Source: Tubulanus polymorphus
Taxonomy: Eukaryota > Animalia > Nemertea
DNA length: 64,000 bases
Assembly: GCF_964204645.1 (NCBI RefSeq)
Contig: NC_134025.1
Coordinates: forward strand, 19,257,101-19,321,100
Direction: 5' to 3'
Under the pieces are notes generated by a model. The model ran no database searches, was not told the origin of the DNA, and saw only the letters and a list, made by a program, of their open reading frames with translations. This document shows positions 12,781 to 54,591 of this stretch, piece by piece; the first letter of the stretch is position 1; every line of letters begins with the position of its first letter. The translations under genes and the position numbers were made by a program.

Positions 12781-12783
12781 GCG

Positions 12784-15379: not shown

Positions 15380-15383
15380 ATAG

Positions 15384-17196: not shown

Positions 17197-18981
17197 ATGT
17201 GGAATATCTCATATTTTGCGGTATGGGCCTGGGTCGTTTTCTCCTTCAAGGTACGTGGGCGCGTGGACATGATTTTTATCAGAAGTATCCGAAGGGTACG
17301 CCCATGAGCTTTGAACATTCATTCACGGAAAATCTAAATCGGTAATTGTGATTATTTTCAAATTTTAGTCTACATGTATCAAGACAGATGCGTCATGTGA
17401 TAATGATGGAACTAGTTTTGAAGTGCCGCGAGTGATAAGCTTTTCGACCTCAGAAAAATCAGAAGGCTTGCTTACATTATTGGCTTATATATCATCAAAT
17501 GAACATCTTCGAATATCTTGGACAAAATATCTCACATATGGAACTCAGTGGTCTGCAATGTATGTTGAAGGTATGTTGATTTACTTTAGAGATTCCTTTA
17601 CATTGACACTAGTAATGGTAAACAAATGTATATCTATGTCGATCGCCTACTTTCAGGGGATAGTAACCACCGTCCTCAGTGGAGAATTTTGGGAAATATT
17701 TACGAAGCTAAATTGCACATTCGCTACACTGAAGGATCCAACAAAGAACACTTAGTTTCTCAATATGAACTTGTTGTATCGATACCAGATCGTTGTTCAG
17801 ATGTTAAACTTTATGTTAGACCTCATAGCTTACTTCGACCAAAGGCAAAAATCGAACGATTTCCTAATCGAATCGCCGTGCCTACGTACATAAACGATAT
17901 CAAAGAAGGTGATAGATTCGAGCTCAAAACGATTCTTCTTGGAAATGCCGATGGATTTGCAAATGTAGAATTCAAACCCGTGCAGAAACTTCTTTCTCAA
18001 GGCTCCAAAACAATTATGTTAGGTAGATTTCCTGCAACTTCAGTAGAAGAAATTGAACCAAGAATTGATGTAAGATCTTCGGGAAATATGCAGAGAATTA
18101 CTTATCGCGTTGATTTCGAAAACATAACTGAAGGGAGTAGTGGTGTTTATGCAATGCGCATAGATGTCAAAGATTCTCAAGTATCTCAGTCACTGGTCGT
18201 ATTAACCGAACTAAGAACTGGTGAATTACCCATTTTAGATGTTGGTGTCACGTTCTGTAATTTAGGAGCGACTAAACGGTTGAGTGACCGAAGAATTGCT
18301 ATCAAAAAGGGTATCCCAAACTGCATTATGTGTGTAGCCTCTGGACAAAGAAGACCGTATCTTACAATACTGAAAGTCGTCCGAAAACCATACAACAGTG
18401 GACGTCCATTTTCAAGAGTTCGGGCACTGGGACAGTTGTACATGGCGTCGTCTTATATATTAAGACAAAGTAGCTTGTACAGCCCGTCGTTTGAAGATGC
18501 TGGCTATTACTACTGTTACGCGAGAGGTTACACGTCAAAACGCTATAAATTTGAGATTACCCTGTCAGACAATATCGAGCTCGATTCTAGGACAACCGAT
18601 GTAATAAATCTCAATGAACCAGAAACGGTAGGCCATTTTGAAAATCACATGATACTATGTATATGATACTGTCTACGATTTTAATATGAAAACTGATTAT
18701 TTCAGGTGGTATTCTCTTGTGCAGCATCTGGAGATCCAGTACCCGAAATACGTTACTACCGCAAAATACAGGACGAGTGGGTAAAACTTGAAAACGGTAC
18801 TAATTACGACAACGTCAATATAAGATTTTTGCGGTTTGGAAAAGGTATGTTTAAGAAGATTTTTAGCCGTCTGCGAATAGCGAAAGTAACGCCTGAAATA
18901 ACTGGTATCTACAAATGTGTCGCGTCAAATAAATACGAAACGAAAAGTAAACGAATTGAAGTGAAATTAAAGACTTTATGA
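17197..18981 (+). CDS. Secreted Ig-superfamily protein, ~500 aa, 4 exons (17197-17250, 17369-17570, 17657-18627, 18706-18981)
   Basis: All introns are GT-AG and phase-compatible, giving 1503 nt. Signal-peptide-like N-terminus MWNISYFAVWAWVVFSFK. I-set motifs CVASG..P/DAGYYYC and CAASGDPVPEI/TGIYKCVASN. No TM segment. Confidence 0.8.
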
Positions 18982-23263: not shown

Positions 23264-23658
23264 AGTAATAGGGGTAATGGGCTTTCATACCAAAGGTGGA
23301 ACGGTCGAGCTCATTAAAAAACAAAACATTAAAAGTAATTTAAAACTATAATATATTTTCATAACCGTGAGCATTTTATATTATAACTAAATATTTATTC
23401 TAAGATATCAATAATTTAAAAAGCATATTGTATTAAATCAATTGGTCGCTCCACTTCGCTACCGCTCCGCTCCCCGACCAATTGATTTATTTACAATACA
23501 CAAGTTCATATAATCAAATATATTCAAATAATAATAGTATTCAACTGAAATACACACGGTTATGAAAATATATTATAGTTTTAAATTACTTTTAATATTT
23601 GTTTTTAATGAACTCGACCATTCAACCTTTGATATGAAAGCCCATTACCCCTATTACT
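23264..23658. repeat. ~395-bp imperfect palindrome at the left end of the viral element
   Basis: AGTAATAGGGGTAATGGGCTTTCAT... pairs with ...ATGAAAGCCCATTACCCCTATTACT. The inner stem AAATCAATTGGTCG/CGACCAATTGATTT encloses a CGCT-rich loop. Confidence 0.9.
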
Positions 23659-23738
23659 CTTAAAATATTCATATATATGAATAAAATATAAATCATTGAA
23701 CTTCTAAAACCAATTTTAATAAAAATTTAAGTATTAAA

Positions 23739-26700
23739 ATGGAAGCAAATAAGTACTACTGTCCAACATGTAATATCAATGTAGATAAATCCCAAAAAGC
23801 AAGACACAATAAAACTAAAACACATTTAGAAAATAAATTGAAACTAGAATATAAAGATGATATATTAGAAACTAAATTAGATGAATTAAAGAATGATAAA
23901 GAAACATATAAATGTGATACATGTAATCAATCATTCAGTGATAAAAGATATTATAATGAACATTTAAAATCTAAAAGTCATATTAGAAATAAGAATAATG
24001 ATATTTTAGGTGAAGATTATTTTGATAAAGATAATGATAAGAAACAGAAGACAATTAAAAGCATAAAAAATAAATTAAACAATAAAAGACCATACATGGA
24101 AGATGTAAGAAATTATATTAATTCATTAGATAATAAAAAAGATATAGAGATAACCGAAGCATTTAAAAGTGATATTGGCCCAGCAGCTATCGAGTTTAAA
24201 TTTCATAAAGGAAAAACATTAGAAGAAAATAAAAAACATTTAGAAAATATGAAAGAAATAATAAAAATAATTACAGATGTTGAATACCCTAAAATTAGTA
24301 TATCAGTTAAAGTAAAGTTTATAAAATCTGAAGATAAACCAATATATAATATAAATTCTCATTCACAACATATTATTTCAAAACAACATATAGATGATAA
24401 ATTAGATAGATGTTATAATGAAGTAAAAACTAAAATAGAAGAGAAATATTTTGAAGGATCTGGTTTAATATTTGATGAAATAATATTTATGACTTTACAT
24501 GTTTATAACACAAAATATAATAAGTTAACTAAATCAAAACCAATTGATGAAAATAATGTATCATATTATAAAGAACCAGATATTGAAGCATCGAGTTATA
24601 TTAAACTACCATTTAAAACTAATGCTGTTATAAATATACAAAATGAAGATGATAAATGTTTTCTATGGGCTATAATAAGTTGTTTACATCCAACAGAAGA
24701 TATTACACATAGTTTTAGATTAACTCATTATAAACCATTTGAAAATAATTATAAGATAGATAAGTATCCTGTTAGAATTAAAAACGTCCCAAAGATAGAA
24801 AGAGATAATAATTTAAGAATAAATGTATTTGATTTAATCAAATTACCAAATACAAAAGGTAACAATATAAAACATTATACATTAGAACCTTTATACCTAT
24901 CAAAAGATTATGATTCAAACGATGTTATAGATATACTATATTATGAGAATCATTATATGTGGATTAAACAAATTGATTTATTTTTTAAATCAGAAAATGA
25001 TCACCATAAAATATATCTTTGTAGAAAATGTTTACATAGATTCAGTAATGAAAGTACATTATTAAATCATAAACAATTATGTGAAAATCATGATTATTGT
25101 AAATTAGTTTTACCAAATGAAAAGGATAAAATATTAGAATTCAAAAAATATGATTACAAAAATAAAGTTCCATTTGTTATATATGGAGATTTTGAATCAT
25201 TAAATAAAGAACTAACTGATCAAGATAGAAAAGAAATATATTATAAGAGAAAGAAATTAAATTCTAATGAAAATGATTATTCTGAAGAACCACCAAAAAC
25301 AAATACTATTAAAAAGATTCATCAATCAGCTGCACCTTTCGGGTTATATATTAAATCTGATTATCCAGAACTAATTGAAAGTGAATATTATGATTATAGA
25401 AATGAAAATGTTATCAATCATTTTTGTGACTTATTAATTGAATATGAAATAAGATTTAGTAAATTATTGAATACAAATATAGAAATAATTATGACAGAAG
25501 AAGATAAAGAAGCATTTGAGTTTGCAGATAAATGTTATTATTGTGAAAAGATATTTAATTATAAAGATAAAAAAGTAAGAGACCATGATCATTTGAACGG
25601 AAAGTTTAGAGGCGCTGCGCATGAGAATTGTAACTTACAAGCTAAGAAAATTAATTTTGTACCAGTTATATTTCATAATCTATCAGGATATGATGCACAT
25701 TAATTCATCAAACAGTTATGCCATAAAATAGAAGAAATCAATAATGAAATAGAGAGATTAAATTCAAATAGATCAAAAGATAAAATACCAACTTATAAAT
25801 TTAGAATGTTAGCTAAAACATCTGAGAATTATATATCATTCCAATTTGGGTGTCTAAGATTTATAGATTCATATAGATTTTTAAATAGTTCATTAGATAA
25901 CTTATCAAAATCATTAGTTGATGATGAATTAAAAATATTAAAACAACATTATCAAAATAATGATGATTTTCAATTAATGAGATATAAAGGAGCAATTCCA
26001 TATTCATTTTATAAGAATCATAATGATTTCAATATAACTGAATTATTGAAAGAACAATGCTATGATGAATTAAAAAATGAATATGTTAAAGATGAAGTCT
26101 ATAATAGAACATTGAATCATTTCAAAATAGAAAATCATGGGCAATTAGTAGATTTATATTTAAAATCAGATGTATTATTATTAACCGATATATTCGAAAG
26201 GTTTAGAGATGTAAACCTAAAATATTTCAATATTGATCCTTGTCATTGTTATTCATCACCAGGTTTAACATGGGATTGTGGATTAAAATTTACAGATATA
26301 AAAATGGATTTGTTAACAAATATAGATCAATTACTATTATTTGAAAAATCTATAAGAGGAGGAGTTTCAGGTGTATTAGGTGATAGATATTTCAATGTAA
26401 ATGATAACCCTGGATATAAGTTATTATATATAGATGCAAATAATTTGTATGGTTGGGCAATGATGGAACCACAACCTTATGGAGTATTTGAAATAAGTGA
26501 AGTTTTACAGAATGAAAATAATGATAAATTTGATTGGAAGAAAAGAATTCTAGATATTGCAGATGATTCAGATACTGGTTACTTCTTTGTTGTAGACTTA
26601 GAATATCCTGAACATATTAAATTTAAATCTAGAAATCTAGCTTACTGTCCCGAACATAAAACTGTAACTCATGAAGAATTATCAAATTACCAAAAAAGAA

Positions 26701-27767
26701 TTAAACCCGAAAATCATATTCATACAGAAAAGTTAATGGTAACTCAAGAAGATAAATATAATTATGAAGTACATTATAGAATGTTAACGTTTTATCTAAA
26801 ACAAGGAATGGTTCTAAAAAAAGTACATAGATATATTTCATTTAGTCAATCTAAATGGTTAGAAAAATATATAGATTTTAACACCAAACAGAGAACTGAA
26901 GCTAAAACTGATTTCGAAAAAGATTTCTTCAAGTTAATGAATAATGCATTCTATGGTAAGACTTGTGAAAATATTAGAAATAGAAATGATATTGAGTTAG
27001 TTAGTAATGGTAAAAGGATAAGGCATTTACAATCATATCCTAAGTTCATTGGTAACAGAATATTTGATGAAAATTTAGCTGCAGTTAAGATGAGAAGAAC
27101 TTCTATGAAATTTAATAAACCAATCTATGTTGGTGCTTCAGTTTTAGAATTATCAAAATTACTAATGTATGAATTCTATTATAATGTATTACAACCACTT
27201 TTTGGAGAAAAACATATAGAAATCTTATATTTTGATACTGACAGTTACATATTAAAGATAAAAACTGATAACATAACTGATGATTTAAAAACATTAAAAC
27301 ATCATTTTGATTTTAGTAATTATCCCAAAGATCATGAATTGTTTAGCAATGATAATAAAAAAGTTCCCGGTAAATTCAAAGATGAATTAGGCGGTGAAGA
27401 AATGATAGAGTTCATTGGTATTAGATCTAAAATGTATTCATATAAAACTAAAGAACATGAAGCTAAAAAGTTAAAAGGAATAACCAAAAGTGTAGTAGAA
27501 AAGAATATTCATTTCAAAGATTACATCAATTGTATATTCAATGAAGAAGTTAGAAAACATAAGATGAGATGTTTAAGATCTGAAGATCATGAAATGTTTA
27601 TTGAAGAAATTGAAAAGATAAGTCTAAACCCATTTGATGATAAAAGATATATTCTGGATGATGGAATTCATACAGTTGCTTATGGTTGCAATTTAGATGA
27701 ATACTTAAAATTTAAAAGAGAAGAAACAAAAGAGAACGAGATATTGAAAAGAATTCTAACGTGTTAA
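23739..27767 (+). pseudogene. polB: Protein-primed family B DNA polymerase (1342 codons, one in-frame TAA at 25701-25703)
   Basis: Both ORFs are in the same frame. N-terminal C2H2 fingers, DDKCFLWAI/ENHY (vOTU-like), YGDFE exonuclease I, RDHDHLNGKFRGAAHENCN (Endo VII-like), FHNLSGYD, YIDANNLY, KLMNNAFYGK, YFDTDS. Confidence 0.95.
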
Positions 27768-27796
27768 TCAAATTTTAATAAAAATATGTTATTAAC

Positions 27797-28033
27797 ATGG
27801 AGAGTAAACAAGCAAACAGTGAGAACAACAAATTATTTCTAGATAGAATTAAAGATATAACAAATGTAAAATCTGTAGATTATAAATTCAAAAAGTTAAC
27901 AGAATTAACAATTCATAAGAAATATCTAATTACAAATATTGATACAGTTACTAATAACTATGGAGATAAATTAGTTATACACTTAGAATATGAAGGATTA
28001 AAAGGAAATACATATAAATTCAGAACATATTTA
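27797..28033 (+). pseudogene. Small conserved viral protein (TxYG...F-x-x-[YF]-LP type), C-terminus deleted
   Basis: Homologous to the copy at ~12090-12330 (minus), which keeps the C-terminus, and to 12869-13194. Confidence 0.7.
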
Positions 28034-28665
28034 AGTTTATGTAATTCTTTTTATAATATAACGGATAAAACTATTGAAGATAATACCTTTTTAATTCATA
28101 TTGGAAACGTAAATAAATGGTTTCATATAATTTTAAAACCAGGATTATATAATTTAGAAACATTAGCTCAAGAAATTAATCGAAGAGCACGGTTGAAAAT
28201 TAGAAGAGAAGATAAATTTTTAATTAGATTTATAAAAAGTGATAGCACAAATAAAATTAAAATAAAGGTATATGATGAAAGTCAACATGCATTTATGGTA
28301 AAAAAAAACCATTAGCTAAACTGTTAGGAATTGCACCAGATACTGTTACAGGAAACGTAGATGGTAATTCAAATATAATACCTTTTACACACTTTTATAT
28401 TTATTGCAATTTAATCGAGCCTACAAAAACATTCGAAGCAACTAAAGATACAATTTGTAATTCTAGTATATTAGATATTTTACCATTAAAAAACGTTAAA
28501 CAATTTGGAACTCAAATAAATTATAATTTAGCTGAATGTGATTTTAAACCTTGTATTCCTAAATTTAATAATTTTAAATTAGAAATAAGAAATCACAATG
28601 GATATTTAATTGATTTGAATAACTTTCCTGTAATTTATGAATTAGTTATAAGATGTAGAGAGTAA
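28034..28665 (+). pseudogene. Minor capsid (penton) protein, N-terminus deleted, frameshift in the A-run at ~28300
   Basis: NSFYNI, LKPGLYNLETL, LAKLLGI, FYIYCNLI, ILDILP and IDLNNFPVIYELVIR fit a single jelly-roll penton pattern. Confidence 0.75.
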
Positions 28666-28681
28666 TTTTTTCACTATATAA

Positions 28682-29041
28682 ATGAATATAAATGTTGGAC
28701 CGAGCATATGTTTTGGATTTGATTTTAAACGTGAGAAAGAAATGAAATTTAACATTAATGATGTAATTACACATATTAAAAATATTGCATTTTCTAATGA
28801 AACAACATTTGAGTATGAAACAACAATAGATAAAGAAACTTTAAATGTAGAAAAGATTACTAATTTAATTAGAGAATCTTTAAGATTTTATGAATTAGAT
28901 GAAGATTTTATCATCGATGATATTAAAAAAATAATAATTGAAATATATACAAATGAAACTAGTAATGAAATAAATGTTGAATTAATCGTAAATAAGTTAA
29001 CTAAATATTTTGATGATAGTAATTTTTTTATAAATAAATGA
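28682..29041 (+). CDS. Viral hypothetical protein, 119 aa, acidic
   Basis: Intact ORF with TATATAAATG start. Confidence 0.7.
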   Translation: MNINVGPSICFGFDFKREKEMKFNINDVITHIKNIAFSNETTFEYETTIDKETLNVEKITNLIRESLRFYELDEDFIIDDIKKIIIEIYTNETSNEINVELIVNKLTKYFDDSNFFINK

Positions 29042-29259
29042 GTGATAATAAGTGGATAATAACTGGATTATATAATGGAGCATTACTATCAGTTGGAACT
29101 GTTGGTTATTCAATGGTATTAAAAAAAATATTCAAAATGGGAAGTGTTAATGTTGATAGATTTGATATAAATGATATTTTAAAGTTAACATTAGCAGTTA
29201 CTTTATCTAATTTAACTATAGATTATTTAGAAAAACAAAAATATATTCCTCCCATATAA
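29038..29259 (+). CDS. Viral small hydrophobic protein, 73 aa
   Basis: Intact ORF with TAAATG start and two hydrophobic stretches. Confidence 0.7.
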   Translation: MSDNKWIITGLYNGALLSVGTVGYSMVLKKIFKMGSVNVDRFDINDILKLTLAVTLSNLTIDYLEKQKYIPPI

Positions 29260-29283
29260 ATGCATAATTATTTTACTAAATAA

Positions 29284-29706
29284 ATGGCTTCTGCAGTTAT
29301 AACTATTATAGGATCGGCAATTGTTAACGATTTAGCATTTACTGGTGGTGGTTATTTATTCAAGCATATTGATAAAAATGGTTCATTAACAGAACAAAAA
29401 AGACATAACTTAGCATTAGAGAAATATAATAAAGCAGCAGAAGAATATAGAGAAAATAGACAAAACTATATGGATTATATTAACAAGGAATTATATGATC
29501 AGAAGATTTCACATAGAGATTTTCAATCAGTTGATGATGCAATGAGTTTATATAACGCGGTAACCAATAAAGAAAAATTACATCTATACAAACCCAAATC
29601 ATCAGATTATTATACCCCAAGTAATGAACAGAAGAAATATGAAATAATATGGATTTTAGGTGGAACAGTTATTGTTATATTTGTTGCTTATAAGTTTACT
29701 AATTAG
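29284..29706 (+). CDS. Viral membrane protein, 140 aa
   Basis: Hydrophobic Gly-rich N-terminus, coiled-coil middle and C-terminal TM (IIWILGGTVIVIFVAY). Confidence 0.75.
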   Translation: MASAVITIIGSAIVNDLAFTGGGYLFKHIDKNGSLTEQKRHNLALEKYNKAAEEYRENRQNYMDYINKELYDQKISHRDFQSVDDAMSLYNAVTNKEKLHLYKPKSSDYYTPSNEQKKYEIIWILGGTVIVIFVAYKFTN

Positions 29707-29730
29707 TAATTTTTTTTTTTTGCTAAATAA

Positions 29731-30165
29731 ATGGATGATAAAGTTGATAATATTGATATTATTCCTCATGATATAAATAAAACTAAATTAAAAACATATT
29801 TAGAAAAACAAATATTAGAATTTGAAAGTGACTTAAAGATAAAAAAGAAAAAATATTTAAAAAGTAAAATTATATATTATTTGATTATAAGTGGTTCGGT
29901 TACAATTAGTTCTGTAATAACATTTCTAGCAATATTTTCACCATTAACACCTTTAGCTATATCAATTGGTGTATTAGGATTAAGTTCAAGTGTTTTAACC
30001 GGTATAAGTTCAAAATTAAATATAAAAAGCAATAAAGAAAAAATTAAAACTAATATAAAAGAAATTAATAAATTAAAGAATACACTAGATTATATAATAA
30101 GTTTAAATGGCCATATAACAGTTGAAGAACAAGATAAATTATTAAAAGAATTAATAAATTATTAA
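29731..30165 (+). CDS. Viral 2-TM coiled-coil protein, 144 aa
   Basis: Central hydrophobic hairpin flanked by coiled coils. Confidence 0.75.
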   Translation: MDDKVDNIDIIPHDINKTKLKTYLEKQILEFESDLKIKKKKYLKSKIIYYLIISGSVTISSVITFLAIFSPLTPLAISIGVLGLSSSVLTGISSKLNIKSNKEKIKTNIKEINKLKNTLDYIISLNGHITVEEQDKLLKELINY

Positions 30166-30181
30166 TTTTTTAATTATATAA

Positions 30182-31348
30182 ATGGTAGATAGTTTTCCAA
30201 AAGCTTTCCAATATAATAAATCAATTAAATATAATATTCCTGCAATAGATTTTAATAAAGATATTACATATAGAAATGAAGTTTTAAATTCATTAATTGA
30301 TTTATATATTTATGTTACTGAAAGTAATAATTTTCATGTAAAGATGGAAAATATATTTCATGTGTATACAATTAATTTCAAAAATTTAAATGAGGCAAAA
30401 CAATGGTTATTAAAATCTAATATGAAGTATTGGCAGAACCAATTAAATTTTGCTGTTTATTGTGCAACAACAGGATGTGGAATTAGTTGGAATGATCATT
30501 TAAACAAACCAAGTTTACCATTGATGTTATCACTTTTTAGATTTCATACTTATTTTCAAATAAAATTAATATTAGATGAATTAGAATGTCCTTTACCAGG
30601 TTCAAAATATTTTAAAGAATTGAATATTAATATTAATTTATCTTTTGGAAAAATAATGACAAATTCAGATATAAGAACACTAAATTGGAATGAATTACCA
30701 AAATATTATAATAATATACAACAACAAAACAATAATGGTTGGGATAATTTCATTTTAGAAAATGGTGAAGGTTTTACTAAAGCTGGTATACAAAGAATAA
30801 ATCAATCTATTAGAACTTATTTGATATGTATTTTAGGTGCGCAAGTTGAAACAAGATCCCCAATAATTGGAAATGATAACACTTCATTCGATGCGCAGAA
30901 ACAATTCAAAGTATTATTTGAAGATTCCATTCATAATGATAAAAATAGATCGATTCCAGAAAACATTGTAAGATATCAAAATCATTTAGATAAATCACAT
31001 ATTAGATTAAATTATTGTATAGGCCCTAATCTATTTATTATTTCTAATGATTTAGTATTAAAGATGGGAAACATAATTGGTTATAATAATCTAATTAAAA
31101 CTGCAACAATAAATAATTCATTTGGATTGAATGATATAAATAAAAAGATTATCACTGCTCCAAAATTAATGGAAGGTGAAAAAAATAAAAAACATATTCA
31201 ATCAACTGAAACTAAAACTAATAATATTAAATTAAATAATGATTCTAAAATAAAAGATTATAATACTACAGAAGATATTAAAACTGATATTATTCAACAT
31301 GATATAATTAAACTAAATGATGATAATCCCATGAAAATGCTAAATTAG
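30182..31348 (+). CDS. Viral hypothetical protein, 388 aa
   Basis: Long ORF with motif WQNQLNFAVYCATTGCGISW. A hydrophobic tail appears frameshifted at ~31340-31400. Confidence 0.75.
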   Translation: MVDSFPKAFQYNKSIKYNIPAIDFNKDITYRNEVLNSLIDLYIYVTESNNFHVKMENIFHVYTINFKNLNEAKQWLLKSNMKYWQNQLNFAVYCATTGCGISWNDHLNKPSLPLMLSLFRFHTYFQIKLILDELECPLPGSKYFKELNININLSFGKIMTNSDIRTLNWNELPKYYNNIQQQNNNGWDNFILENGEGFTKAGIQRINQSIRTYLICILGAQVETRSPIIGNDNTSFDAQKQFKVLFEDSIHNDKNRSIPENIVRYQNHLDKSHIRLNYCIGPNLFIISNDLVLKMGNIIGYNNLIKTATINNSFGLNDINKKIITAPKLMEGEKNKKHIQSTETKTNNIKLNNDSKIKDYNTTEDIKTDIIQHDIIKLNDDNPMKMLN

Positions 31349-31758
31349 CTTTATCTTGTATAGGAATTGTGATCGGAGGAATATTATATTTTAAATTTTA
31401 ATTTTTTTATTATGTAAATGGCAGAAGGTGGAGGAGATATTCCATTGGATCCTTTAGATGAACCTGGTATAAGTGATGAACAACCACTTGATTTTGATGA
31501 AACAAGTTTTAGTAATGATAATAAAACAGAATATAATACTAATTTAAATACACCTGAATTTATTGATAAAACACGTTCAAAGATAAGTACTGAAAATGAA
31601 GTACCAGAATTAACAGGAAAAGAATTTAAATATAATGAAATTGCTAGTGATTTTAAACCAACGTTAAAAAGATCTGGTTTCAATATAACACATAAAGGTA
31701 TGGATTATTTAGTAAAAGGTTTGAAATATTTTAATGGTTCTTAGGAAGAGAGTTCAAA

Positions 31759-32591
31759 TATCCGAATAACCATAGAAGCGATAACATTAAAAACCTCATT
31801 TTCTAATGAGTAAATACAGTTTATTAACACGAACGTTTTCGGGATCATATCCCCTCATCAGGTGAAATACAAGTGAATCAAATGATTAAACTACAGGTTT
31901 ATATACAACATAAGTTACAAAATTACAAGTGCTAAATTCTAAGCTTATTACAAACCAAGTATTTAATTACAAACTAATTATTTGAATACATTTAGGATAA
32001 AGGATGAGCCGTTTTGAAATAATTGTTGATTTAAAGAGGGTCGTTGCGCTTTAATAAACAGGGCCTCCCTAATTTTTTTACAGTCGAGATCAGATGAACC
32101 TTTGTCTAGAATTTTGAATTTGTTGTTACTATATTCCTGATCACAAGTGTGACAAATTGCGAGATGTTGTCCAATCGCAGAAGTCTTTGATCTGTGTTCC
32201 TTAATCCTGATGGCCAAATGTCGTTTAGTTTTCCCAATATAGGAAGTGTTTATATCACATAAACAATTAAATTTATATATGACTTTAGCCTTCAGCGATT
32301 TAGGGGTAGCACATTTCAAAGAGAAAAAATTCTTAATTTTGGTCGTAGTGAATGCACATTTCAAGTTGATTTCAAAATTCCTTTTAAATAGATATTTTAA
32401 TTTTCGGGCAAATAGGATTGACGGGTTACCAATATACGGTAATGAAATGAATAGATCAATTCCATCTTCAACAGGTTTCGGTTGATTTTTTGAAAAATCT
32501 GTTTAAATCTAATGCGTTTCCTATTCATGTCATCGATCAATGTATTAATAGATTTTTGAAATCAAAACAGAACTCAGAACCTCAATCAAGA
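31759..32591 (-). mobile_element. Penelope-like retroelement, 5'-truncated with 5' inversion
   Basis: GIY-YIG ORF 31978-32364 (VIYKFNCLCD...YIGKTKRHL..RIKEH...EALFI). TSD AGAGTTCAAA at 31749-31758 and 32592-32601. The RT tail 32490-32590 lies on the opposite strand. Confidence 0.88.
31828..31864 (-). ncRNA. Minimal type I hammerhead ribozyme of the Penelope element
   Basis: Minus strand reads cac-CTGATGA-g-gggat(atg)atccc-GAA-AACGTT-C-gtg: complete catalytic core, stem II and palindromic stem III. Confidence 0.82.
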
Positions 32592-33421
32592 AGAGTTCAA
32601 ACTGAAAAACTTTTACCGAATGGATTACTTGATGCAACAGATCAACAATTAGAAGATTTAGATATATTTTCTGATAAAGCAATTAGAGAGATTATTAGTA
32701 TAAGAAATGAAGCTGATAAAATTGCACATGAAAAAAGTAAAAGAGATATTAAAATTAACAATTTAGAAAAAGAATTAACTGATAAAAATGAAGAAATAGA
32801 ACAACTAAAGTCTGATTTAGATCATCAAGTAATTGATGAAATAGAATATAAGCAAAAAGAATCACGTTTAAAAAAAGAAAAAGATGATTTAGAATATAAC
32901 ATAGAATTACAAAAAGAAGAAATTAAATTATTATTAAAATCATATGATTATAATAATAATAGATTAAAAGTTATTTCTAAAGATTTGTTGATTAAACCAA
33001 ATTCTGAAATATCGTTGAAAGATAGAATAAAGTTATTATTTAAATTAGAAGGAATAACAATTCTTTCAATTCTAACAGCTGTAACTATGTTATTCACAAC
33101 AATTGGTTTAGCTATATCAAATGCGTTAAAATCTACTCCTACTCCAAATAAACCAGATAAACCCCCAGATAATAATTCTATACAAGATAAAGTTAAAGAT
33201 GGTTTAAAGAAATTAGCAAAATATTTATGGGAACTATCTAAAAAATCTGCTGCAGCTTTACCAGGAATTATTGCATCAATTGTTGGTTTTATATTGAAAT
33301 CTGCAGGAAACATTATTAACTTTGCTACTGCTATTTTATTTTTAATTACAGTTGTAAGTGCTATTATTTTTGGTTTAGTAAACATGATAAAAAATAAATA
33401 ATTAATTTTTTTGTTAAATAA

Positions 33422-34671
33422 ATGAGTGGGAGTCATATAAGTCCTTCTAAGATTTCTAGAATATCTAATGCTATTAAAGCAGAAAGATCACATCATATAA
33501 TTACTCATAACCCTTCAAATATTAATCCCGATGAAACTTTATATGTTAGAATTCCTAGATTAACACAAAATACTTTTTATGTTCCAAATAGTATCTATTT
33601 ATCCGCCGATATAAAAGTAATCGGTAATAATAATAATTATGTTGTTGATAATGTTGGAAGATATTTGATTAAAAAATTAACTATAAAGATTGGTCCAGAA
33701 ACAGTTTTCTCATTAGATGATTATAATTTATTTATGCATTATAAAGATTTATGGTTAACTAAAGAAAATAGAAATAAGATGATATTTCAAGGCATCCAAT
33801 CAGAAAACCAAAATAAATTAAGATCAGAGGCTAATAGCGCAATATTAACTAATGCTGTAGATAAATTGATAAAAAGTATATATGGAAGCAAATATAAAAT
33901 TCCATTAGACTTTGAATTGATAAATAATAATGCACCTTTATATAAATACGCAATTCAAGAAGACGTTATATTCGAAATAACATTTGCTCCTGTAAATGAA
34001 ATTGTATTATCTAGCGTTAACAAAGATATGAGTTATAAATTATCGAATATATGTTTAGAATATGATACAGTAACTGATGAAAATATTTCAAGTATAATTC
34101 AAACTCAATACAATCAAGGATTTTCATTATTATATGATTATATTGATAAATTTAAAACCGCAACTATTAATGCAAATGATGAAATAATTAATGAGAATAT
34201 TAACTTCCCAAGAAGATCTATTAAAGGTATATTAATATTTTTTACCATTGCAACATATACTAATGGCGCAATAAATGTTGATAATTATTATAATCCTGAA
34301 ATAACAAAAGTAGAAATAACTATCGAAGGAATAGCAAATAAAATATATTTTGTCAAGGAATGAGAATGATTGATCAATGGCCAGAAATTAGAAAACATTT
34401 TATGAATGAAAAAGTAAAATCATCTGAAAATTGTAATATTAATCAAATTGATTATTATACCGGTAATAAATATGCATTATGGTTAGATTTTAGAACAACA
34501 GAGGATAATTTATTACATGGTTCTGGAAAAAAACTACAGAACACTAAAGATGGAATACAATTATTCATGACAAAGAAAAAGGGAAGCCTAAATTTCAAAA
34601 TGCACATTTATATTATATCTGACGCGCAATTAAATATTGTAAATACACAATTAGATAGTGTTATGTATTAA
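33422..34671 (+). pseudogene. Major capsid protein (double jelly-roll), single frameshift near 34350
   Basis: Overlapping 313-aa and 103-aa ORFs total ~415 aa. Beta-rich pattern (NPSNINPDETLYVRIP, FEITFAP, YKLSNICLEYD, ALWLDFR, YIISDAQ). Assignment rests on size, pattern and context. Confidence 0.8.
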
Positions 34672-34703
34672 AATTTTAACTTTAATAAAAAATCTTTTAT
34701 TAA

Positions 34704-35492
34704 ATGGAAGGAGGTAAAGTATATAAACATATTCCATACATCGATACACATGAAAATAATGATGGTTTATATTATGTAATACCTTGTAATATAGCTTTGA
34801 TATTTGATCCTATTTTCAAAATGAATAAAACTAAACTAATAGAAATCGATAATAATAAAAGTGAAGTTGTTGATAATTTAAGTAATGTAATTGATAATAA
34901 TGTAATACCTACTACAGTAATACCTACTACAGTAATACCTACTACATCTAATAATGTAATACCTTCTCCATCTAATAATGAAATAATATTAAATGTTAGT
35001 GAAAATAGAAATTATTGTGATTATTGTAAAGGTGAATTTTCAAACGCTCCATCAAATTGGAATAAACATATGAATACAAAGGTACATATTACTAATGTAA
35101 TAGAACGTGTTGGTTTAAAAGAATTTATAGAACACCCATTTAGATATGTTACAAAGTTTGTTTCAAATAAAAAAGTAAATGGTAAAGAATTATATGAAGA
35201 TTTTTTATTAGCAACACCTAATAAAGATGAATTAGATTTAACTGATGCTAATGAAATATTAGGATCAAACACTGTAAATGAAATATTAGGAGCAAACACT
35301 AATAAAGATTCTATGAAACATAAAGTAGAAAATAATGATAAATTTGATTGGATGAATAAGCATAACAATGAAACAACTATTGATGATGCGGTAAAAAGGG
35401 TGAAGAATAAGTATAAAAATAAAACAACTATTGACGATGATACGGTAGAGAATTTGAATAAATTGTTAGGATCTGATAGTGAAAGTGATTAA
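34704..35492 (+). CDS. Viral zinc-finger protein, 262 aa
   Basis: CDYC...HMNTKVH C2H2-like finger and VIPTT x3 repeat. Confidence 0.7.
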   Translation: MEGGKVYKHIPYIDTHENNDGLYYVIPCNIALIFDPIFKMNKTKLIEIDNNKSEVVDNLSNVIDNNVIPTTVIPTTVIPTTSNNVIPSPSNNEIILNVSENRNYCDYCKGEFSNAPSNWNKHMNTKVHITNVIERVGLKEFIEHPFRYVTKFVSNKKVNGKELYEDFLLATPNKDELDLTDANEILGSNTVNEILGANTNKDSMKHKVENNDKFDWMNKHNNETTIDDAVKRVKNKYKNKTTIDDDTVENLNKLLGSDSESD

Positions 35493-35526
35493 GATATTAA
35501 TTATATTTAACATATATAATAATAAT

Positions 35527-35875
35527 ATTGGTTGAAAATTGTATAAAATAATAGTAAATAAAAAAGGGGGTTTTAAGTATTTAAGGTATTTAAGGCATCT
35601 AATACATATCTAATACATATCTAATACATATCATTTGAAAATACCTTAAATTATATTTCTTTTTTAAATTTATGTTGAAACCTCAGTAATAATAAATAAC
35701 CTTTATTATTTTCAAACTTATTCATATATTTGTTGAAAAAATAAAAATAAATTGGTTGAAAATTGTATAAATAATATTTATTTTAAAAAAGGGGGTTTTA
35801 AGTATTTAAGGTATCTAATAGGGTATCAGGTATTAGGGTATCTAATAGGGTATCTAATACATAGGTATACAAATA
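35527..35875. repeat. Duplicated intergenic module between the convergent gene blocks
   Basis: ATTGGTTGAAAATTGTATAAA...AAAAAGGGGGTTTTAAGTATTTAAGGTAT occurs at ~35527 and ~35751, each followed by (ATCTAATA...) short repeats. Confidence 0.8.
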
Positions 35876-35876
35876 G

Positions 35877-36485
35877 TTATTTTGTAAATTTATATTCATA
35901 TGGAAATTGTAATCTCAGTAATAATTTTGAACCTTTATTATTCTTTAATTTTTTCATATATTCATCATATAATTCTGTAGGTATAATTTGATTTTCTTCC
36001 AATGATTGTTGCATAGATTTTCTATCTTTATTGTAGAATAAAACTAGAAATCTTATATTCTCCCTAAAGTCTTTAACAATTAAATTATATTTTTGATTTA
36101 AAACCCATGTTGTTATCCTAAAATGTCTTCCAGAGAAAGCTAAATAACATAACTCACTTTCTCTCACTTTTGAATCATGTAAATTTGCGCAATCATCTAC
36201 AATGAATAATGTATTTGATCCTTTATAAGCATCAATTGCTATTTTTATACAATTATCTAAATTTTCTTTTACTGTTTTAGGATTTAATATAATAAACTTT
36301 TTCATCTTAACTATATCTCTATTATATGTTTTATTCATTTCATAAGTAGGACAAAATAATATGATATTATCAAAATGATTCTTATAAATAGTTTCTAACA
36401 AATCTAATATGAAATGTGTTTTACCACAATTGGTTACACCAGTAACTAACATATGCGGTTCAAATATAAATAAATCTTTATTCAT
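35877..36485 (-). CDS. A32/FtsK-like genome packaging ATPase
   Basis: Walker A GVTNCGKT, Walker B FIVDD, SGRHF arginine motif, LNQ sensor. Confidence 0.92.
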   Translation of the reverse strand: MNKDLFIFEPHMLVTGVTNCGKTHFILDLLETIYKNHFDNIILFCPTYEMNKTYNRDIVKMKKFIILNPKTVKENLDNCIKIAIDAYKGSNTLFIVDDCANLHDSKVRESELCYLAFSGRHFRITTWVLNQKYNLIVKDFRENIRFLVLFYNKDRKSMQQSLEENQIIPTELYDEYMKKLKNNKGSKLLLRLQFPYEYKFTK

Positions 36486-37326
36486 TTATTCTTTTAATTT
36501 CACTAGATAAAATCCATTCATTAAATTTATCATCGTATCCTTTATATTTCACCAAAGAATACTTTTTTCCTTCAAGAGTTTTTGTTTTCAATACTTTTTC
36601 TATTTTGTATTCTATTTCATCTGGATTTGGAACAAGTGATAATTCTTGTTCATAGAAATAACCTAATATTTCTTCATCTTTTAGATCTTCTAATTTATAA
36701 ACAAAAGGTCGATATATTTATATGTTTCATTAGCAGTAAAATATTTCCACATTCTAGTTTTCAATGTTTTATTAAATCTTTCTATAATAGATGCTTTTTT
36801 ATCTGAATGTGTTGAAAAATAATCTACATCGTTATCAGATAATAGTTTTTTAAAATGTTATAAAATTCCTTACCTTCATCAAATTGTATCTTATCTGGAA
36901 AAGCTTCTTTAAATATAGATTTAAAAGCATTTGTTACTTCTATTCCAGTTTTATTTTGATTGGAATTGACCATGCGTATCTACTGAATATGTCTATAACA
37001 TTTAATATCCAGAAATATCCTTTGTTGTGTTCTTCTGAGTTCTTCATGTCAATTAAATCAGCTTGCCATTGTTGATCAATATGTGAAACCATAACTTTTC
37101 TTGTTAAATAAGTTTTATCCATTTTCTTATGTATTTGATATGTGGGTTGGTTTTGTAACCATGATTTTAATTCACTATATTTTATATCACCGTGTGGGTG
37201 CCATACGGCACCACCACCATTTTCCTTATCAGATTTAATTTTATTCCATAATTCTGAAACGTTAGAATATGATACTTCACTTTCTGGGTTATAATATAAA
37301 TCTCTTAAATATTGTTCTTTTTTCAT
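36478..37326 (-). pseudogene. int: Retroviral-type (rve) integrase with C-terminal chromodomain; frameshifted and internally deleted
   Basis: WQADLIDM, IDIFSRYAW, then after a frameshift PDKIQFDEGKEFYN, and finally LVKYKGYDDKFNEWI. Confidence 0.9.
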
Positions 37327-37332
37327 CTTATT

Positions 37333-37815
37333 TTAATCCATTAATAATAATTTAGATTTAGTTTCAATGGTTTTATGATTTGACTTATTTTCTGGTATGA
37401 TAGGTTTATTGTCTGTACACGGATAACTAAGTTTCCGATCATCATTGGAATCATCTTTATCATCAAATTTGAATTTTGATTTATATATTACACCGGATAA
37501 TATAATAACTGTGATTAACCCAATTGTAATATATAATTTATAATTACTTCCAGCATTAGAAGAATCAGATGGATTATCATTCGAATCAATATCAGATAAT
37601 TTCTGTGATTCATTTATATCAGTTAATTCTTTTTTCTTAGCTTTTTTTAATTCTGAAGATCTTTTTCCTAATTCTCTTACCCATTTAATTTGTTTCTCTA
37701 TATCAGTTAATTTCTTTTTCTTAGCTTTTTTTAATTCTGAAGATCTTTTACCTAATTCTCTTGCCCATTTAATTTGTTTCTCGGATCTAGCCTTTTTCTT
37801 AACGTCATCACTCAT
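37333..37815 (-). CDS. Viral basic protein with one TM segment and a 28-aa internal duplication, 160 aa
   Basis: EKQIKW[AV]RELGKRSSELKKAKKK[KE]LTDI x2; TM LYITIGLITVIILSGVIY. Confidence 0.75.
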   Translation of the reverse strand: MSDDVKKKARSEKQIKWARELGKRSSELKKAKKKKLTDIEKQIKWVRELGKRSSELKKAKKKELTDINESQKLSDIDSNDNPSDSSNAGSNYKLYITIGLITVIILSGVIYKSKFKFDDKDDSNDDRKLSYPCTDNKPIIPENKSNHKTIETKSKLLLMD

Positions 37816-38410
37816 TTATTTTAGTTAATTTTTGTTCTGATTCATTTTTTGTTTCGACGTTTGGTTGTAGTACATCTGTTTCGTTCTTACCTGATTTATA
37901 TTCCATAGGCTTGATGTTCGAAAATGTTATGACACCAGTAGAAATTAATGTCATAACCGATCCTAATTGAAATGAAGCATAACCAACCCATTTTTGTAAT
38001 TCAGTCATAACTAAATAGTCATTTTTCAAATCACTATATAATTTATTTTCATCATCAATTGGTATTAACTGGTTACATAATTTTGAATAACATTTGACAA
38101 TACCATCACTTATAGAGTCGTTTATTCTAGCTAATCTAGCTTCTTCATAAATCTTAAAATATTTTATTACTTTATCTGGTTTCATAGAGTCTAGTTCTTG
38201 AAAAGTAATGATTCTATTTAAAAACTCATTAGTTTTTCCACCGGCAATCAATAGTTCTAGATGATGCTTACAATATAAATAGTATTCATAATCTATATTG
38301 TTATTAACTTGAATAGAATTAGAAACAACTGTATCTTTATTATCACTAATACCCAAATCATCTAATGTCTTTTCAATATCAATACTATTCTTATTAGATT
38401 TCTTTGACAT
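37808..38410 (-). CDS. Viral hypothetical protein, 200 aa, hydrophobic C-terminal segment
   Basis: Intact ORF with TATAAATG start; overlaps the next gene. Confidence 0.72.
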   Translation of the reverse strand: MSKKSNKNSIDIEKTLDDLGISDNKDTVVSNSIQVNNNIDYEYYLYCKHHLELLIAGGKTNEFLNRIITFQELDSMKPDKVIKYFKIYEEARLARINDSISDGIVKCYSKLCNQLIPIDDENKLYSDLKNDYLVMTELQKWVGYASFQLGSVMTLISTGVITFSNIKPMEYKSGKNETDVLQPNVETKNESEQKLTKINE

Positions 38411-39559
38411 TTATATTAGAGAAAAAAGCGAAAAAAATATAATAAGTATTCTTCAAATGATACTAGTATCTCTTTAGATTAATACTAGCTTAGTTAAAGG
38501 TAAAGAATTTTAGTATTAGTTATTGTTTTTTTAGTATTTTTTATTTGTGATATAAAGTATTCTTTTTTGAAAAGAAAATATTAAAAAAACAATAACTAAT
38601 ACTAGCTAGTTGAAGATATGTAATTTTTAATACTTTTTATTTAAATTAGGATTTAGATTATCTCACTACTATTGTTTATCTATAGGAGCAGTAATTATAA
38701 CTGTCCAGATAAGTCATTTCGGATTCTTGATAATAAATCCTAAAACTAAAAATAAATTCAAAGAAACGACTGGTGGAAATACTATTTCATAAACACATAT
38801 ATTTTATTCTACAATCATTATCGATTTCCACATTCCAAGCCGATCGGCTGAGGCCCGGTAAGTTATGCGTGGAATGCAGGAATCAATAAAGTACAATACA
38901 ACATCTGTCACTGTGTGTCATAAACAACAGCTTAATGACGCAATTGAAATTCCGACAAACGTAATGCATTGAAAGCCTATACAGTATGGCTAAACTGCTA
39001 CAGGCTCATGAGTTGAAATATCCATTATTTCTGATTCCACATCCATCTATCTTCACTTTCTTGATTCAATGGCCTTCATTTTGTTATCTAAAAGATAAAT
39101 ATCTAGCGTAGAATAAAACTAACTTGAAGTTGTAGTTGTAAAATATTAATTACAACACTTAAACATGGCCATTTGTGGCTCATCTTACCAGGATAAGTTT
39201 TACATGTTTAGCGTTTTCCAACGCCTTAATAACAACAAAAACAGTACTTACATTTATAACTGTAAACTCCTAAAATTGTGTTTATAGAGAGAATATCCTA
39301 TACGTTCCTATGCTTATGTGCTGCGCGTTTATAACTGCCAGTTATTCACTAGCTAAACACTATCTGGTGCAACAGATGTTCCTTTGTTCTTTTATGATTA
39401 ATCCTTTTCAACTGAAATAGCACATTCGATCAATATTCAAATGAGATACACCCTATTCAACTGAATATGAAATACGGCACAGATGTTTTTGTAAACAACC
39501 TAATACAATTACATACAGGCGGTTTGACATAGATCGAGAGTAACCGGTTTTGTAAGCGT

Positions 39560-40291
39560 TTAATATTCAACGTATTTTTCATTATGTGTTGAGTTCCATA
39601 ATTCAACAAATGTCTTTGCTTTATCCAGTTGATCTAAATATAACTGTAAATCTAGTTTATTAGATTTAATTATGTTTTCCTTCTTTTCTAAAGGTCTTAA
39701 ATTCTTCCAGCACCAGATTAGCTTCTTATTATAATCATCACTCATGTCAAATTTAGAAATTGGCAACACATGATCAATATGAAAGTATTCACCATAATTA
39801 TCTATATTCATTTTATCATCGAATTGATATATTATCCATGATTTTAAGAATTCATCTGTACAACCCAACAAATTAGATAATGTTTCTGAATGTGTTTCTT
39901 TGTTGAATAATTGTGTTAATCTAATTCTCAAACATTGTTTCAATTTGTAATTAAAATCTGTATGATATTTTTCCTTATAATAATTTCTATTATACACTTT
40001 AATATGTTCTAAATGATTTTCTTTCCATTGCTTATTTTTATCTTTGCGTGTTTCAGTATTATTTCTATAATTTTGTTTGTCACTTAGTTTACTACAAGTT
40101 TTACAATAACTTTGCTTACCATCTTTCTGAGTTTTATAATTATAATATTCCGAGAGTTGTTTATTTATTTTACATTTAGAACATTTCTTATTGTTTATAT
40201 TTATAGTTTGTGTACTTTCCACACATCTGGAATTATCTGACGATCTCATCTCGGTAAAGTTAAAAGTTATTTTTCCAAAAATATCCGACAA
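39560..40291 (-). CDS. HNH endonuclease with N-terminal CxxC zinc ribbon (giant-virus/homing type); likely ATG at ~40248
   Basis: CSKC...KDGKQSYCKTC, FHIDHVLPISKFD, WKNLRPL...ENIIKSNK. Confidence 0.85.
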   Translation of the reverse strand: MSDIFGKITFNFTEMRSSDNSRCVESTQTININNKKCSKCKINKQLSEYYNYKTQKDGKQSYCKTCSKLSDKQNYRNNTETRKDKNKQWKENHLEHIKVYNRNYYKEKYHTDFNYKLKQCLRIRLTQLFNKETHSETLSNLLGCTDEFLKSWIIYQFDDKMNIDNYGEYFHIDHVLPISKFDMSDDYNKKLIWCWKNLRPLEKKENIIKSNKLDLQLYLDQLDKAKTFVELWNSTHNEKYVEY

Positions 40292-41184: not shown

Positions 41185-44100
41185 ATGGCGGATACTTTAG
41201 AATGTATAAGATTACTATCACTAAATTGCAACGGCTTAGTTTACTCGAATGCTCGAATTTTTGGCATTTTTGAAAGACTTAAAAACTATGATATATTTTT
41301 ACTTCAAGAAACTCACATATCGAATGATTATGAAATTCAAAAAATATTTAAGCCCTTGAGGAAAGATTTTGAGATTATATATAATATTATAAACGAAAGG
41401 AAATGTGGAGTAACCATAGGTATTCGAAAATCTTTAGAATATACAATTTTAGATAAGACTATAGACAGACAAGGGAGATTGATATCCTTGAAAATATCCT
41501 TGTTCAGCGAAATTTACAATATCGTAAACGTATATGCCCCAAATGAGGAACGTGATAGGAAAATTTTCCTAAGCAATATCAGTAATTATCTTAATCTCAA
41601 CCCTAATGAGCGTACAATAATAGCAGGGGACTTTAATTGTATAGAAAGTCCCATAGATCGTGATTCAACATCCGTCAATTCTTCAATACGAAGTGGCTCC
41701 GAACAATTAGCCAATTTATGTCAACAAAACAGATTAGCAGACGCTTACAGACTTAAAAACCCAGACACAACAGCTTTCTCTAGAGTAGCAAAACGCAATA
41801 ACAATGTCATTAAAACAAGAATAGATCGATTCTATGTGTCAGACACTTTACAATCAGACATAGAACAGGTGAAACACGTCAACTCTATTCATTCCGATCA
41901 CAAGATCGTCGAATTGACAATAAACACTTCTCAAGTCAAACGTGGCAAGGGATACTGGCATCTCAACAAAGAACTACTTAAAAACCCTAATTACATCACT
42001 ATGATAACAGACTTTTGGGCACAGTGGCAAAATCACAAACAGTTTTATGACTCAATTATTGAATGGTGGGAAGAGGGCAAAACTCAGATAAAACAAAGAT
42101 CTATAAAATTTGCATCGGAACTCCGGAGAATTAAAAACAATCTTAAGGAATCATTAGAATCTGAATTATTCATTCTCGAAAAACTTTCTGATATAGGAGT
42201 AAACACTAACCAAAATCAAATTGAATATCTCACCAAGCGTATTCGTTATTTCGAAATTGAAAAAGCAAAAAGTGCTATGATTAGATCTAAGATTCTGTGG
42301 AGAGAATTCGGAGAGAAAACAAGTACTTTCTTTGCGAATTATGAAAAACAACGCGCTAAAAAGAATCACATCTTGACTCTCAAAAATAATCTAGGTGAAA
42401 TTAAAACCGGACAAAAAGACATTGAAAAAATTCAACTCAAATTCTATAAAGACTTATATCGAAAAGAAGAAACGGATTTAGAAACCCAAAATATATTCCT
42501 GACTAATTTACCTCAAATCTCTAATCAAGAGAAACTTCAGCATGACTCCGAAATAGATATGGACGAATTAACAAATTCAGTAAAATCTTTTCAAAATAAT
42601 AAGTCCCCTGGTATAGACGGACTACCTGTTGAATTTTACAGAATATTTTGGCATACTCTCCGAAATGACTTCCTACAATTAATACATGCGTGTATACAAG
42701 AAAATAGACTTTCTAAATCAATGCAAACTGGTATTATATCATTAATTCATAAGAAAAATGACAAAACAGATTTGAAAAATTGGAGACCAATCTCGTTACT
42801 ATGTACAGATTACAAAATATTCACAAAAGTTCTCGCTAACAGATTAATTAACTGCCTAACAGACATAATACACCCAGATCAGACATGTAGTGTAAAGGGA
42901 CGTCGAATCCAAGACAATGGCCATATAATTAGAGACTTAATTGATTACGTTAATAATGATAATTTAGAAGCATTTTTAGTAACAATCGATCAAATGAAAG
43001 CTTTCGATCGCGTTGACTGGCAATATATGTTCAAAACTTTAGAATCTTTCGGTTTTGGAGAAAATCTAATTCGATACATCAAAACTTGCTATTCAAATCC
43101 AAAATCTAGAATCAAAAGTAACGGCTTCTTAACTCAACCATTCACTTTAGAAAGAGGCGTAAGACAGGGGTGTCCCATGAGTGCAATACTCTACATAATA
43201 GCAGCGGAACCATTAGCAATTAAAATACGCGAAAATAACAACATTAAAGGAGTGAAATTACCAGACGACACAGAAATCATACAATACGCAGATGACACTA
43301 CACTATGTCTAACCGACTTAGAATCATTGAATCAAGCCTTTACAACTTTAACTTTATTTGAACGAGCATCGGGTGCAAAAATTAATAAAGACAAAACTGA
43401 GTGTATGTGGTTAGGATCTTGGAAAACTAGAGGCAACTACAAAGCATTTAACGAAACACCATTAACAAATAGATTAAACCACACATGTATATACAATGCG
43501 ATTCCGCAACATTGGAAACTAATTCTATCTGACCAAAATTTAGATCCTGGTGAATTACCAAAAATCTATGTGCAATTTGATAATATAGACTGTACTATAG
43601 GAAAACTTTCATCATCCCAAATTTATAGAATACTATTATTAAAAAATCTCCATCAAATCACACCGATTGGGCAAACCAAAATTACTGAACTTTTAAATAC
43701 TGATCTGAATTGGCCGGAAATTTGGAATGAAGTTTATAATAAACATATCGATAGACGATTTAGTGATATTCATTGGAAATTACTACATAATACTCTTGCA
43801 ACAGCTTCAAAATTAGTACGGAAAATTAAAACTGATCCAAATTATAAATTTGTGGACGCGCGGCAACGAATGACCATGTAGTATATTCATGCACAGAAGC
43901 ACAGCAATTATATTCACGTATACAACCAATCTTTCAACGCATACTAAACGCACCTATAAACATCACTCAAGACATCGTCTACACAGGAATTACTAAAACA
44001 ATAGAAAGAGACTTCTTCAAACGCACACTCGCGAACTATCTTTTGTTTCTCGCACAATCCATTTTGTACAAAAATCATTACAATCTAGAACAAGGCTCTA

Positions 44101-54550: not shown

Positions 54551-54591
54551 AGAGAAATACAGAGACAGGGCCCAATATTAGGAGAAATTTA

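Follow-up and report, generated by a model that had tools for sequence, protein, structure and literature searches.

TAAATG gene starts in a clade of Polintons, with a decayed copy in the nemertean Tubulanus polymorphus, and their possible reading by a poxvirus-type helper

The expression and mobilization of animal Polintons is an open question, and most of these elements are seen only as integrated DNA. The question is raised in a specific form by an element of about 15 kb (~23263-38700) located in a window of 64,000 nucleotides, that is, the whole stretch analyzed here, from contig NC_134025.1 of the nemertean Tubulanus polymorphus. The element is a decayed, multicopy Polinton. It carries genes for a polymerase with family B motifs as judged by eye, an A32 ATPase, an rve integrase with chromodomain and a double-jelly-roll capsid, together with several small hydrophobic open reading frames (ORFs), and its base composition is 41% A and 35% T. 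Nearly every gene starts at TAAATG, and the question is which RNA polymerase these starts address. The reading that we favor, to which about an even chance can be given, is that TAAATG and the T-run before it would serve as start sites for transcription by the polymerase of a helper virus in the cytoplasm, probably one of poxvirus type, and that the clade of the element would be provirophage.

TAAATG is found at all eleven starts for which the original prediction had named it, and likewise at the remnant starts 12069(-) and 12869(+), which belong to fragments of other, deleted copies. Within the element, TAA precedes ATG at 11/14 gene starts versus 38/621 other ATGs of both strands (6.1%; Fisher p=5.7e-11). 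Simulated DNA, read by the rule of the first ATG after a stop, gives a chance rate of 7-9%, over which the excess is still significant (p<1e-9), and thus ORF calling is not its source. The enrichment also holds against sister Polintons. An artefact of composition or of ORF calling is ruled out by the simulated rate and by the counts inside and outside the clade given below. The three exceptions, at 23739 (polymerase), 27797 and 37326 (integrase), are all of the form TAA-N-ATG, which precedes 28/635 ATGs. A nuclease at 40249(-), the fifteenth viral-type ORF, is without the motif, and the count including it is 11/15. The T-tract that had been noted upstream is also there: with upstream positions counted from the T of TAAAT, T occupies -9 in 10/11 and -10 in 9/11 of the TAAATG starts of the element.

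A capsid scan of metagenome loci supplied 80 relatives (the best 80 of 84). The capsid tree, built from the window capsid ORF and those 28 loci whose capsid ORF is nearly complete, contains a strongly supported clade of 15 rows (support 100/99), in which 14/15 capsid genes start at TAAATG versus 0/14 among the other rows. Two more loci (L025 and L029) were placed in the clade by identity alone (53-55%) and not by the tree. Among ORFs of at least 90 aa, TAAATG is at 52/62 starts in clade loci versus 5/218 in the other 64 loci. The GC content of the clade ranges from 0.20 to 0.44, and at 0.36-0.44 (L006-L008) the motif is still on 7/9 starts; AT-rich sister elements have AAA before the ATG in 18/40 starts and TAA in 3/40. 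Since the clade spans such a range and AT-rich sisters differ, the motif marks the lineage and not the base composition.

The same distribution is seen gene by gene. TAAATG starts the ATPase in 5/5 clade loci versus 1/20 sister elements, the 200-aa ORF in 4/4 versus 0/11, the large membrane ORF in 2/2 versus 0/10 and the 140-aa ORF in 4/5 versus 0/5. Homologues of the nuclease at 39560-40249 start at TAAATG in 4/4 cases. The exceptions within the clade are the integrase (2/4) and the 388-aa ORF (1/2), the latter being present in sister elements too, there without the motif. The motif is not restricted to the structural genes: one promoter design serves structural and non-structural genes alike, and in the clade TAAATG also heads genes for ATPase, integrase, nuclease and kinase.

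Outside the clade, an IMG/VR contig with a different gene set (L083, GC 0.38) has TAAATG at 6/6 complete ORFs and at a further ORF that is open-ended; a head-to-head pair is among them. It encodes a protease-like domain (by eye) fused to an rve integrase and a polymerase of 1253 aa, and is possibly a second Polinton lineage with the same promoter wiring. In a separate capsid branch (L039 and L043), genes start at TATATAATG or similar, which hints at another promoter type or helper.

The architecture of the starts was examined in 74 ORFs of the window element and 13 clade loci (three near-duplicates dropped), where TAAAT lies over the start codon in 58/74. These 58 starts have T at -9 in 51 (88%) and at -10 in 45 (78%), the latter versus 43/120 control sites, which are mostly inside genes. 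A reaches 66-71% at -14/-15, and G follows the ATG in 39/55. The feature is conserved, clade-specific and located at the start codon. Head-to-head gene pairs with TAAATG facing both ways, 19-30 nt apart, are found in 6/16 clade loci (L011 and L014 are near-duplicates of L009 and L012). In a minority type, an A-rich block (TTTAATAAAAA) replaces the T-run, namely ahead of the polymerase and at 27797 and 34704, with orthologues in L001, L002, L003 and L005; a TAAAAA-TAAA arrangement with a spacer of 8-11 nt occurs in 9/58 clade starts versus 1/120 controls. There is no TATA box at a fixed distance (1/14 near -30). The baculovirus-type motif DTAAG has 10 matches in 14 upstream regions versus about 5 expected, at scattered positions.

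In late promoters of vaccinia, TAAAT overlaps the start codon and T is conserved at -10 (PMC11980589; PMC11423596, Table 1), and the polymerase core directly reads TAAA (PMC12917281). The clade shares TAAAT over the ATG, the T at -10 amid other T's and the G after the ATG, and differs in having its T peak at -9.

A second line of evidence comes from TTTTTNT, the early termination signal of poxviruses (PMC11423596, PMC3061580), which is avoided on the coding strands of the clade. In 56 clade genes, it was seen 10 times, versus 36.4 expected from synonymous shuffles. The ratio is 0.30 on the coding strand, versus 0.69-1.06 for four permutations of the motif and 0.95 on the template strand. Capsid genes alone have 2 versus 12.4 expected in the clade and 6 versus 6.9 outside it, and the count is low in all four clade subgroups. 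In AT-rich sister elements, 23 were seen and 27 expected. Two iridovirus-like contig sets, introduced below, gave 88 versus 105 and 239 versus 269, and with TTTTT[ACG]T 69 versus 62 and 179 versus 174, that is, no avoidance.

The poxvirus-style start on nearly every gene and the avoidance of TTTTTNT make transcription by an unseen cytoplasmic helper, and not by the host, likely. The scheme would be as follows. By analogy with mavirus, the DNA of the element would reach the cytoplasmic factory of the helper and be transcribed there once the helper DNA has replicated. The element would supply the polymerase for its replication, the ATPase and capsid for its packaging and the integrase for its return to the chromosome. 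As in vaccinia, the helper polymerase would start inside TAAAT, slip on the A's and add a 5' poly(A) leader; the tolerance of T at -3 would be accounted for in this way. The wider scenario, in which one Polinton branch rewired all its promoters for an undiscovered poxvirus-type polymerase and became provirophage, its sisters kept host-type starts and the unrelated L083 was rewired likewise, is plausible and falls somewhat short of an even chance.

Several results weigh against a poxvirus-type helper. When viral contigs were scanned for the promoter pattern of the clade, 74 loci resulted (3 annotated by Pfam, 16 read by eye), among which no poxvirus-like contig was recognized, and neither this search nor the kinase-based one found a helper virus sequence. 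The A-rich starts do not fit the vaccinia intermediate consensus, in which 14 nt separate TAAAAA from TAAA (0/58), their own spacer being 9-10 nt, and the poxvirus early-promoter core is not enriched (5/67 versus 3.5 expected). The late machinery of vaccinia is not known to respond to TTTTTNT, a signal of early genes, and vaccinia would therefore not lead one to expect its avoidance in genes of late type. Other T-runs are also reduced in clade genes (T5 to 0.49, T6 to 0.23); the avoidance may instead concern the promoter's own T-run. TTTTTNT is not enriched at gene ends (15/80 versus 16 antisense), its depletion in the window alone is weak (3 versus 6.8 expected, p ~0.04), and L083 shows none (2 versus 2.2). 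The clade loci are, moreover, mutually related, and the p values overstate their independence.

The choice of TAAATG as a signature is itself affected by the giant viruses. The loci richest in TAAATG starts in the promoter-pattern scan are giant-virus contigs, namely L150 (6/10), L128 (5/11), and L110 and L157 (9/22). L110 encodes an NCLDV capsid, VLTF3 and TFIIB, and its capsid is closest to that of SGIV, a grouper iridovirus (chain 8hif). An iridovirus-like set was then fetched by the L110 capsid and not by promoter (the best 80 of 597). In this set, TAAATG is the commonest start context, at 257/844 starts (30%) versus 3.5% of other ATGs, and in the nearest subgroup it reaches 85/141. Since TAAATG is in use across a large group of giant viruses of iridovirus-like type, the motif alone does not identify a poxvirus, and caution is needed in naming a helper from it. 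The equation of TAAATG with a poxvirus late promoter, as originally made, is thus kept in part: the vaccinia-late-like build, the clade specificity and the avoidance of TTTTTNT stand by it, and the diagnostic value of TAAATG does not.

These giant viruses provide the most serious alternative, namely that the clade is helper-dependent and its helper a giant virus of iridovirus-like type (Pimascovirales), with a late polymerase that starts on TAAATG too. Invertebrates are among the hosts of iridoviruses, whose late genes are likely transcribed in the cytoplasm (section 9 of PMC5294985). The starts of the iridovirus-like contigs are, however, built differently. TT at -9/-10 is found in 41/58 clade starts versus 18/85 in the nearest iridovirus-like subgroup (p 5e-9), where T is only 0.44 at -9 and 0.39 at -10, and in 41/133 starts of the other giant-virus loci. 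TATAA precedes the motif in 21/85 starts of the subgroup versus 2/58 in the clade, which has TAWA instead, and only 10/77 iridovirus-like capsid genes start at TAAATG. Poxvirus-type machinery is favored because TT at -9/-10 and the avoidance of TTTTTNT set the clade apart from these contigs, and an iridovirus-like helper seems unlikely. Cross-scores of weight matrices between clade and giant viruses (AUC 0.80-0.84) were not used, the control sites being mostly coding DNA.

The deoxynucleoside kinase gene of one clade element (L001:10340-10981, minus strand) starts at TAAATG and has three close homologues at 60-67%. A helper search based on this kinase gave no close relative: a giant-virus contig at 37% is without TAAATG starts, and the other matches are generic homologues. 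The clade kinase is only 25% identical to that of the contig of L110 (3/5 handles searched), which also speaks against the iridovirus-like helper. Scans of viral contigs with the capsid, the ATPase and the 388-aa ORF, and a capsid scan of genome contigs, gave no match. Among the giant-virus loci, L160-L169, L110 and L157 have TAAATG at ~60% of starts, with TAATAAATG conserved at the capsid gene (9/9 scored), and other genes have AATTGAACT-like upstream blocks.

It is quite unlikely that the promoters are a relic of helper-dependent ancestors, the copies here being inert or spread through leaky host transcription. The state of the window copy would suit this: its polymerase is broken by a stop, its capsid and integrase genes by frameshifts, and three further genes are broken as well; parts have been deleted internally, one gene contains a piece of a retroelement, and 3/14 starts are off by one base. 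Yet the motif is kept across clade elements with capsid identities of 48-76%, differing gene order and GC of 20-44%, which is an indication of long-term selection. The host copies are, moreover, many and alike. The reads of one DNA run cover the element several hundred-fold, mostly at 90-99% identity, and thus the family spread fairly recently with these promoters.

An autonomous nuclear element, with a factor of its own that would bring host RNA polymerase II to TAAAT as the initiator, is decidedly unlikely. Unassigned ORFs that could encode such a factor remain, for instance the 388-aa ORF and the ORF with a C2H2 finger, and the integrase has a chromodomain. Against this, Pfam detected no RNA polymerase subunit, TBP or TFIIB family among 23 ORFs of the window and 43 from relatives, several of which are without a family label; the 388-aa gene is shared with sister elements that have no motif, and the fixed TATA box is lacking. 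AATAAA is not avoided inside genes (136 versus 139), a weak test, as the sisters show little avoidance too. Reading by polymerase II would leave the avoidance of TTTTTNT unexplained, and a leader of 2 nt with T at -3 would be poor for translation.

The remaining idea, that TAAATG is a signal of translation or RNA processing (stop-start re-initiation, poly(A) overlap, splice acceptor or host start context), can appeal to TAA being a stop codon, to gene gaps of 16-32 nt or overlaps and to AATAAA in 6/11 starts, and is very improbable and largely refuted: TAA closes an upstream frame of >41 codons in only 2/54 clade cases, 5/11 starts lack AATAAA, only 7/~60 starts have AG in the 8 nt that precede the motif, the head-to-head pairs, carrying the motif both ways without an upstream gene on the same strand, exclude stop-start coupling and a poly(A) signal, and the host start context, offered earlier as a refuting alternative, fails on the T at -3, where sister elements have a purine.

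Compared with known systems, the element agrees with Polintons/Mavericks (Polintoviricetes; adintoviruses, PMC8502044) in its putative pPolB-type polymerase, rve integrase, A32 ATPase, double-jelly-roll capsid, size and many copies. It differs in the poxvirus-late-type promoter on nearly every gene of the clade and in the lack of a recognized adenain ORF in the window element. An adenain-type protease is usual, not universal, in Polintons/Mavericks; no Pfam match to it was found in window or clade ORFs. The main text of PMC8502044 uses neither the word "promoter" nor "helper".

The entomopoxvirus-associated polinton-like viruses (PLVs) AHEV_PLV1/2 and CBEV_PLV1 are also small capsid-encoding dsDNA elements, proposed as poxvirus hyperparasites in an animal (PMC11296320). 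They differ in coming from occlusion bodies together with their helper, in having protease and mu-core genes, and in that they have either no detected integrase or else a tyrosine recombinase; the main text of PMC11296320 mentions no promoter, TAAAT, motif or transcription. Mavirus with the endogenous EMALEs, and Sputnik, share the helper-type late promoter and the integrated state, and there too helpers have been deduced from motifs alone (PMC8547959, PMC6401483). Their hosts are protists, however, with virophage-class capsids and TCTA or mimivirus motifs, and for mavirus activation has been demonstrated by experiment. For iridoviruses, sections 6 and 9 of PMC5294985 review poxvirus and iridovirus promoters with no TAAATG late motif for iridoviruses, and PMC6401483 mentions promoter-like motifs of iridovirus-like bins that may overlap the TAAATG result obtained here.

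PLVs that accompany entomopoxviruses are thus already known from these sources, as is the mimicry of helper promoters by virophages of protists. The avoidance of TTTTTNT is a new observation of this analysis, and the literature searched, which took in few subscription papers, has no poxvirus-type promoters in animal Polintons. If a helper polymerase drives one clade, this would offer a mechanism for the silence and spread of Polintons, and provirophages would become a matter of animal genomes as well as of protists. One would then predict a large DNA virus of the cytoplasm, probably a poxvirus-like one, in the host, where the searches made here found none, and the start motifs of Polintons could tell of helper viruses in animals that have so far gone unseen.

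The likely left end of the element is a 400-nt imperfect palindrome (inverted arms, 23263-23661), supported by the sequence arms and by reads. At 23263/23264, 1603 reads have loose ends and unlike flanks, which, together with the several hundred-fold read cover, indicates many copies in the host and the likely left end. An inverted copy of the palindrome was not found at the right end within the window; the element copy is decayed. The A-rich promoter (TTTAATAAAAA, 9-nt spacer, TAAAATG; 23715-23741, plus strand) precedes the polymerase ORF (23739-27767, plus), whose motifs, assigned by eye, we take to be those of family B. The polymerase shares 34% identity across ~1000 aa with an L037 ORF of 1211 aa and is 34-41% identical to sister-element ORFs of ~1200 aa; its catalytic half has no Pfam, PHROG or PDB match.

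The following genes lie on the plus strand. At 27797-28660, with the start TAACATG, there are the remains of two genes fused by deletion, a small ORF like that at L001:125 and an ORF like that at L001:565, with loose read ends at 28033; from its position, and with no library match, the second part is presumably a minor capsid protein. Five genes with TAAATG promoters come next: a 119-aa ORF (28679-29041) with its N-terminus in common with L001:1333; a 73-aa hydrophobic ORF (29035-29259), whose promoter falls within the last part of the gene before it and whose homologues in L001, L006 and L008 start at TAAATG too; the conserved 140-aa ORF with hydrophobic ends (29281-29706); a 144-aa ORF that is weakly SLATT-like, under the cut-off (29728-30165); and the conserved 388-aa ORF (30179-31348), with an internal deletion relative to its 442-aa homologue in L001. 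The model of the 388-aa ORF (pLDDT 63) gave no fold match and the ORF no Atlas match.

The next TAAATG promoter serves a gene of the ~450-485-aa type with a hydrophobic C-terminus (31415-33401, plus), split by a retroelement fragment (~31750-32480). This fragment, on the minus strand, is decayed, has a GIY-YIG-like frame and is presumably Penelope-like; inversion joints are seen in reads at 32481-32585. The double-jelly-roll major capsid protein gene, again behind TAAATG (33419-34671, plus), has a frameshift near 34340-34360. Its relatives have 415 aa and are 72-77% identical to it, and the model of the L001 homologue (76% identical, pLDDT 93) matches the folds of the SGIV, PBCV-1, mavirus and Sputnik capsids. 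It is followed by an A-rich promoter that ends in TAAATG, ahead of an ORF of 262 aa in which a C2H2-like finger was seen by eye (34681-35492, plus) and the orthologues of which in L002, L003 and L005 have the A-rich type as well.

The right part is on the minus strand and includes the A32-type packaging ATPase (35877-36488; Pox_A32, E 2.6e-11), a 160-aa ORF with a hydrophobic stretch (37333-37818) and the conserved 200-aa ORF (37808-38413), all three with TAAATG promoters. The rve integrase with chromodomain (36484-37326) is frameshifted and internally deleted and starts at TAAGATG, which is TAAATG in L002; it is 68-74% identical to the clade integrases, of which that of L001 has rve (E 1.5e-10) and a chromodomain. 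Two direct repeats of ~220 nt (35516-35962) lie between the convergent 34704 gene and the ATPase, and an imperfect palindrome of ~95 nt (38511-38604) is near the right end; each is a possible origin or end structure. Beyond the apparent right end, the Endonuclease VII/HNH-type ORF (39560-40249, minus), without TAAATG here, has homologues in clade elements, and in the contig of another copy its 5' end is joined to the 38630 region with TAAATG adjoining.

Elsewhere in the window, sequence comparison reveals the remnants of the other, deleted copies at 11767-13213 and an older polymerase remnant (15383-16125, plus) with ~69% nucleotide identity to 24462-25141. An Rfam search of the window gave no match. 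The flanks contain a transposase with inverted repeats (2950-4430, by eye) and LTR remains at 4500-9650, which we take to be such and BEL/Pao-like, respectively, and a LINE ORF2 with endonuclease and reverse transcriptase at 41185-43881. A 346-aa ORF (17626-18666) has Ig-like features by Atlas alone, with a low recognition score, its matches being generic animal ones under the recognition threshold. Together, the LINE, the LTR remains and this ORF are consistent with an animal genome, and a tandem array of 34-nt units extends over 51800-54600.

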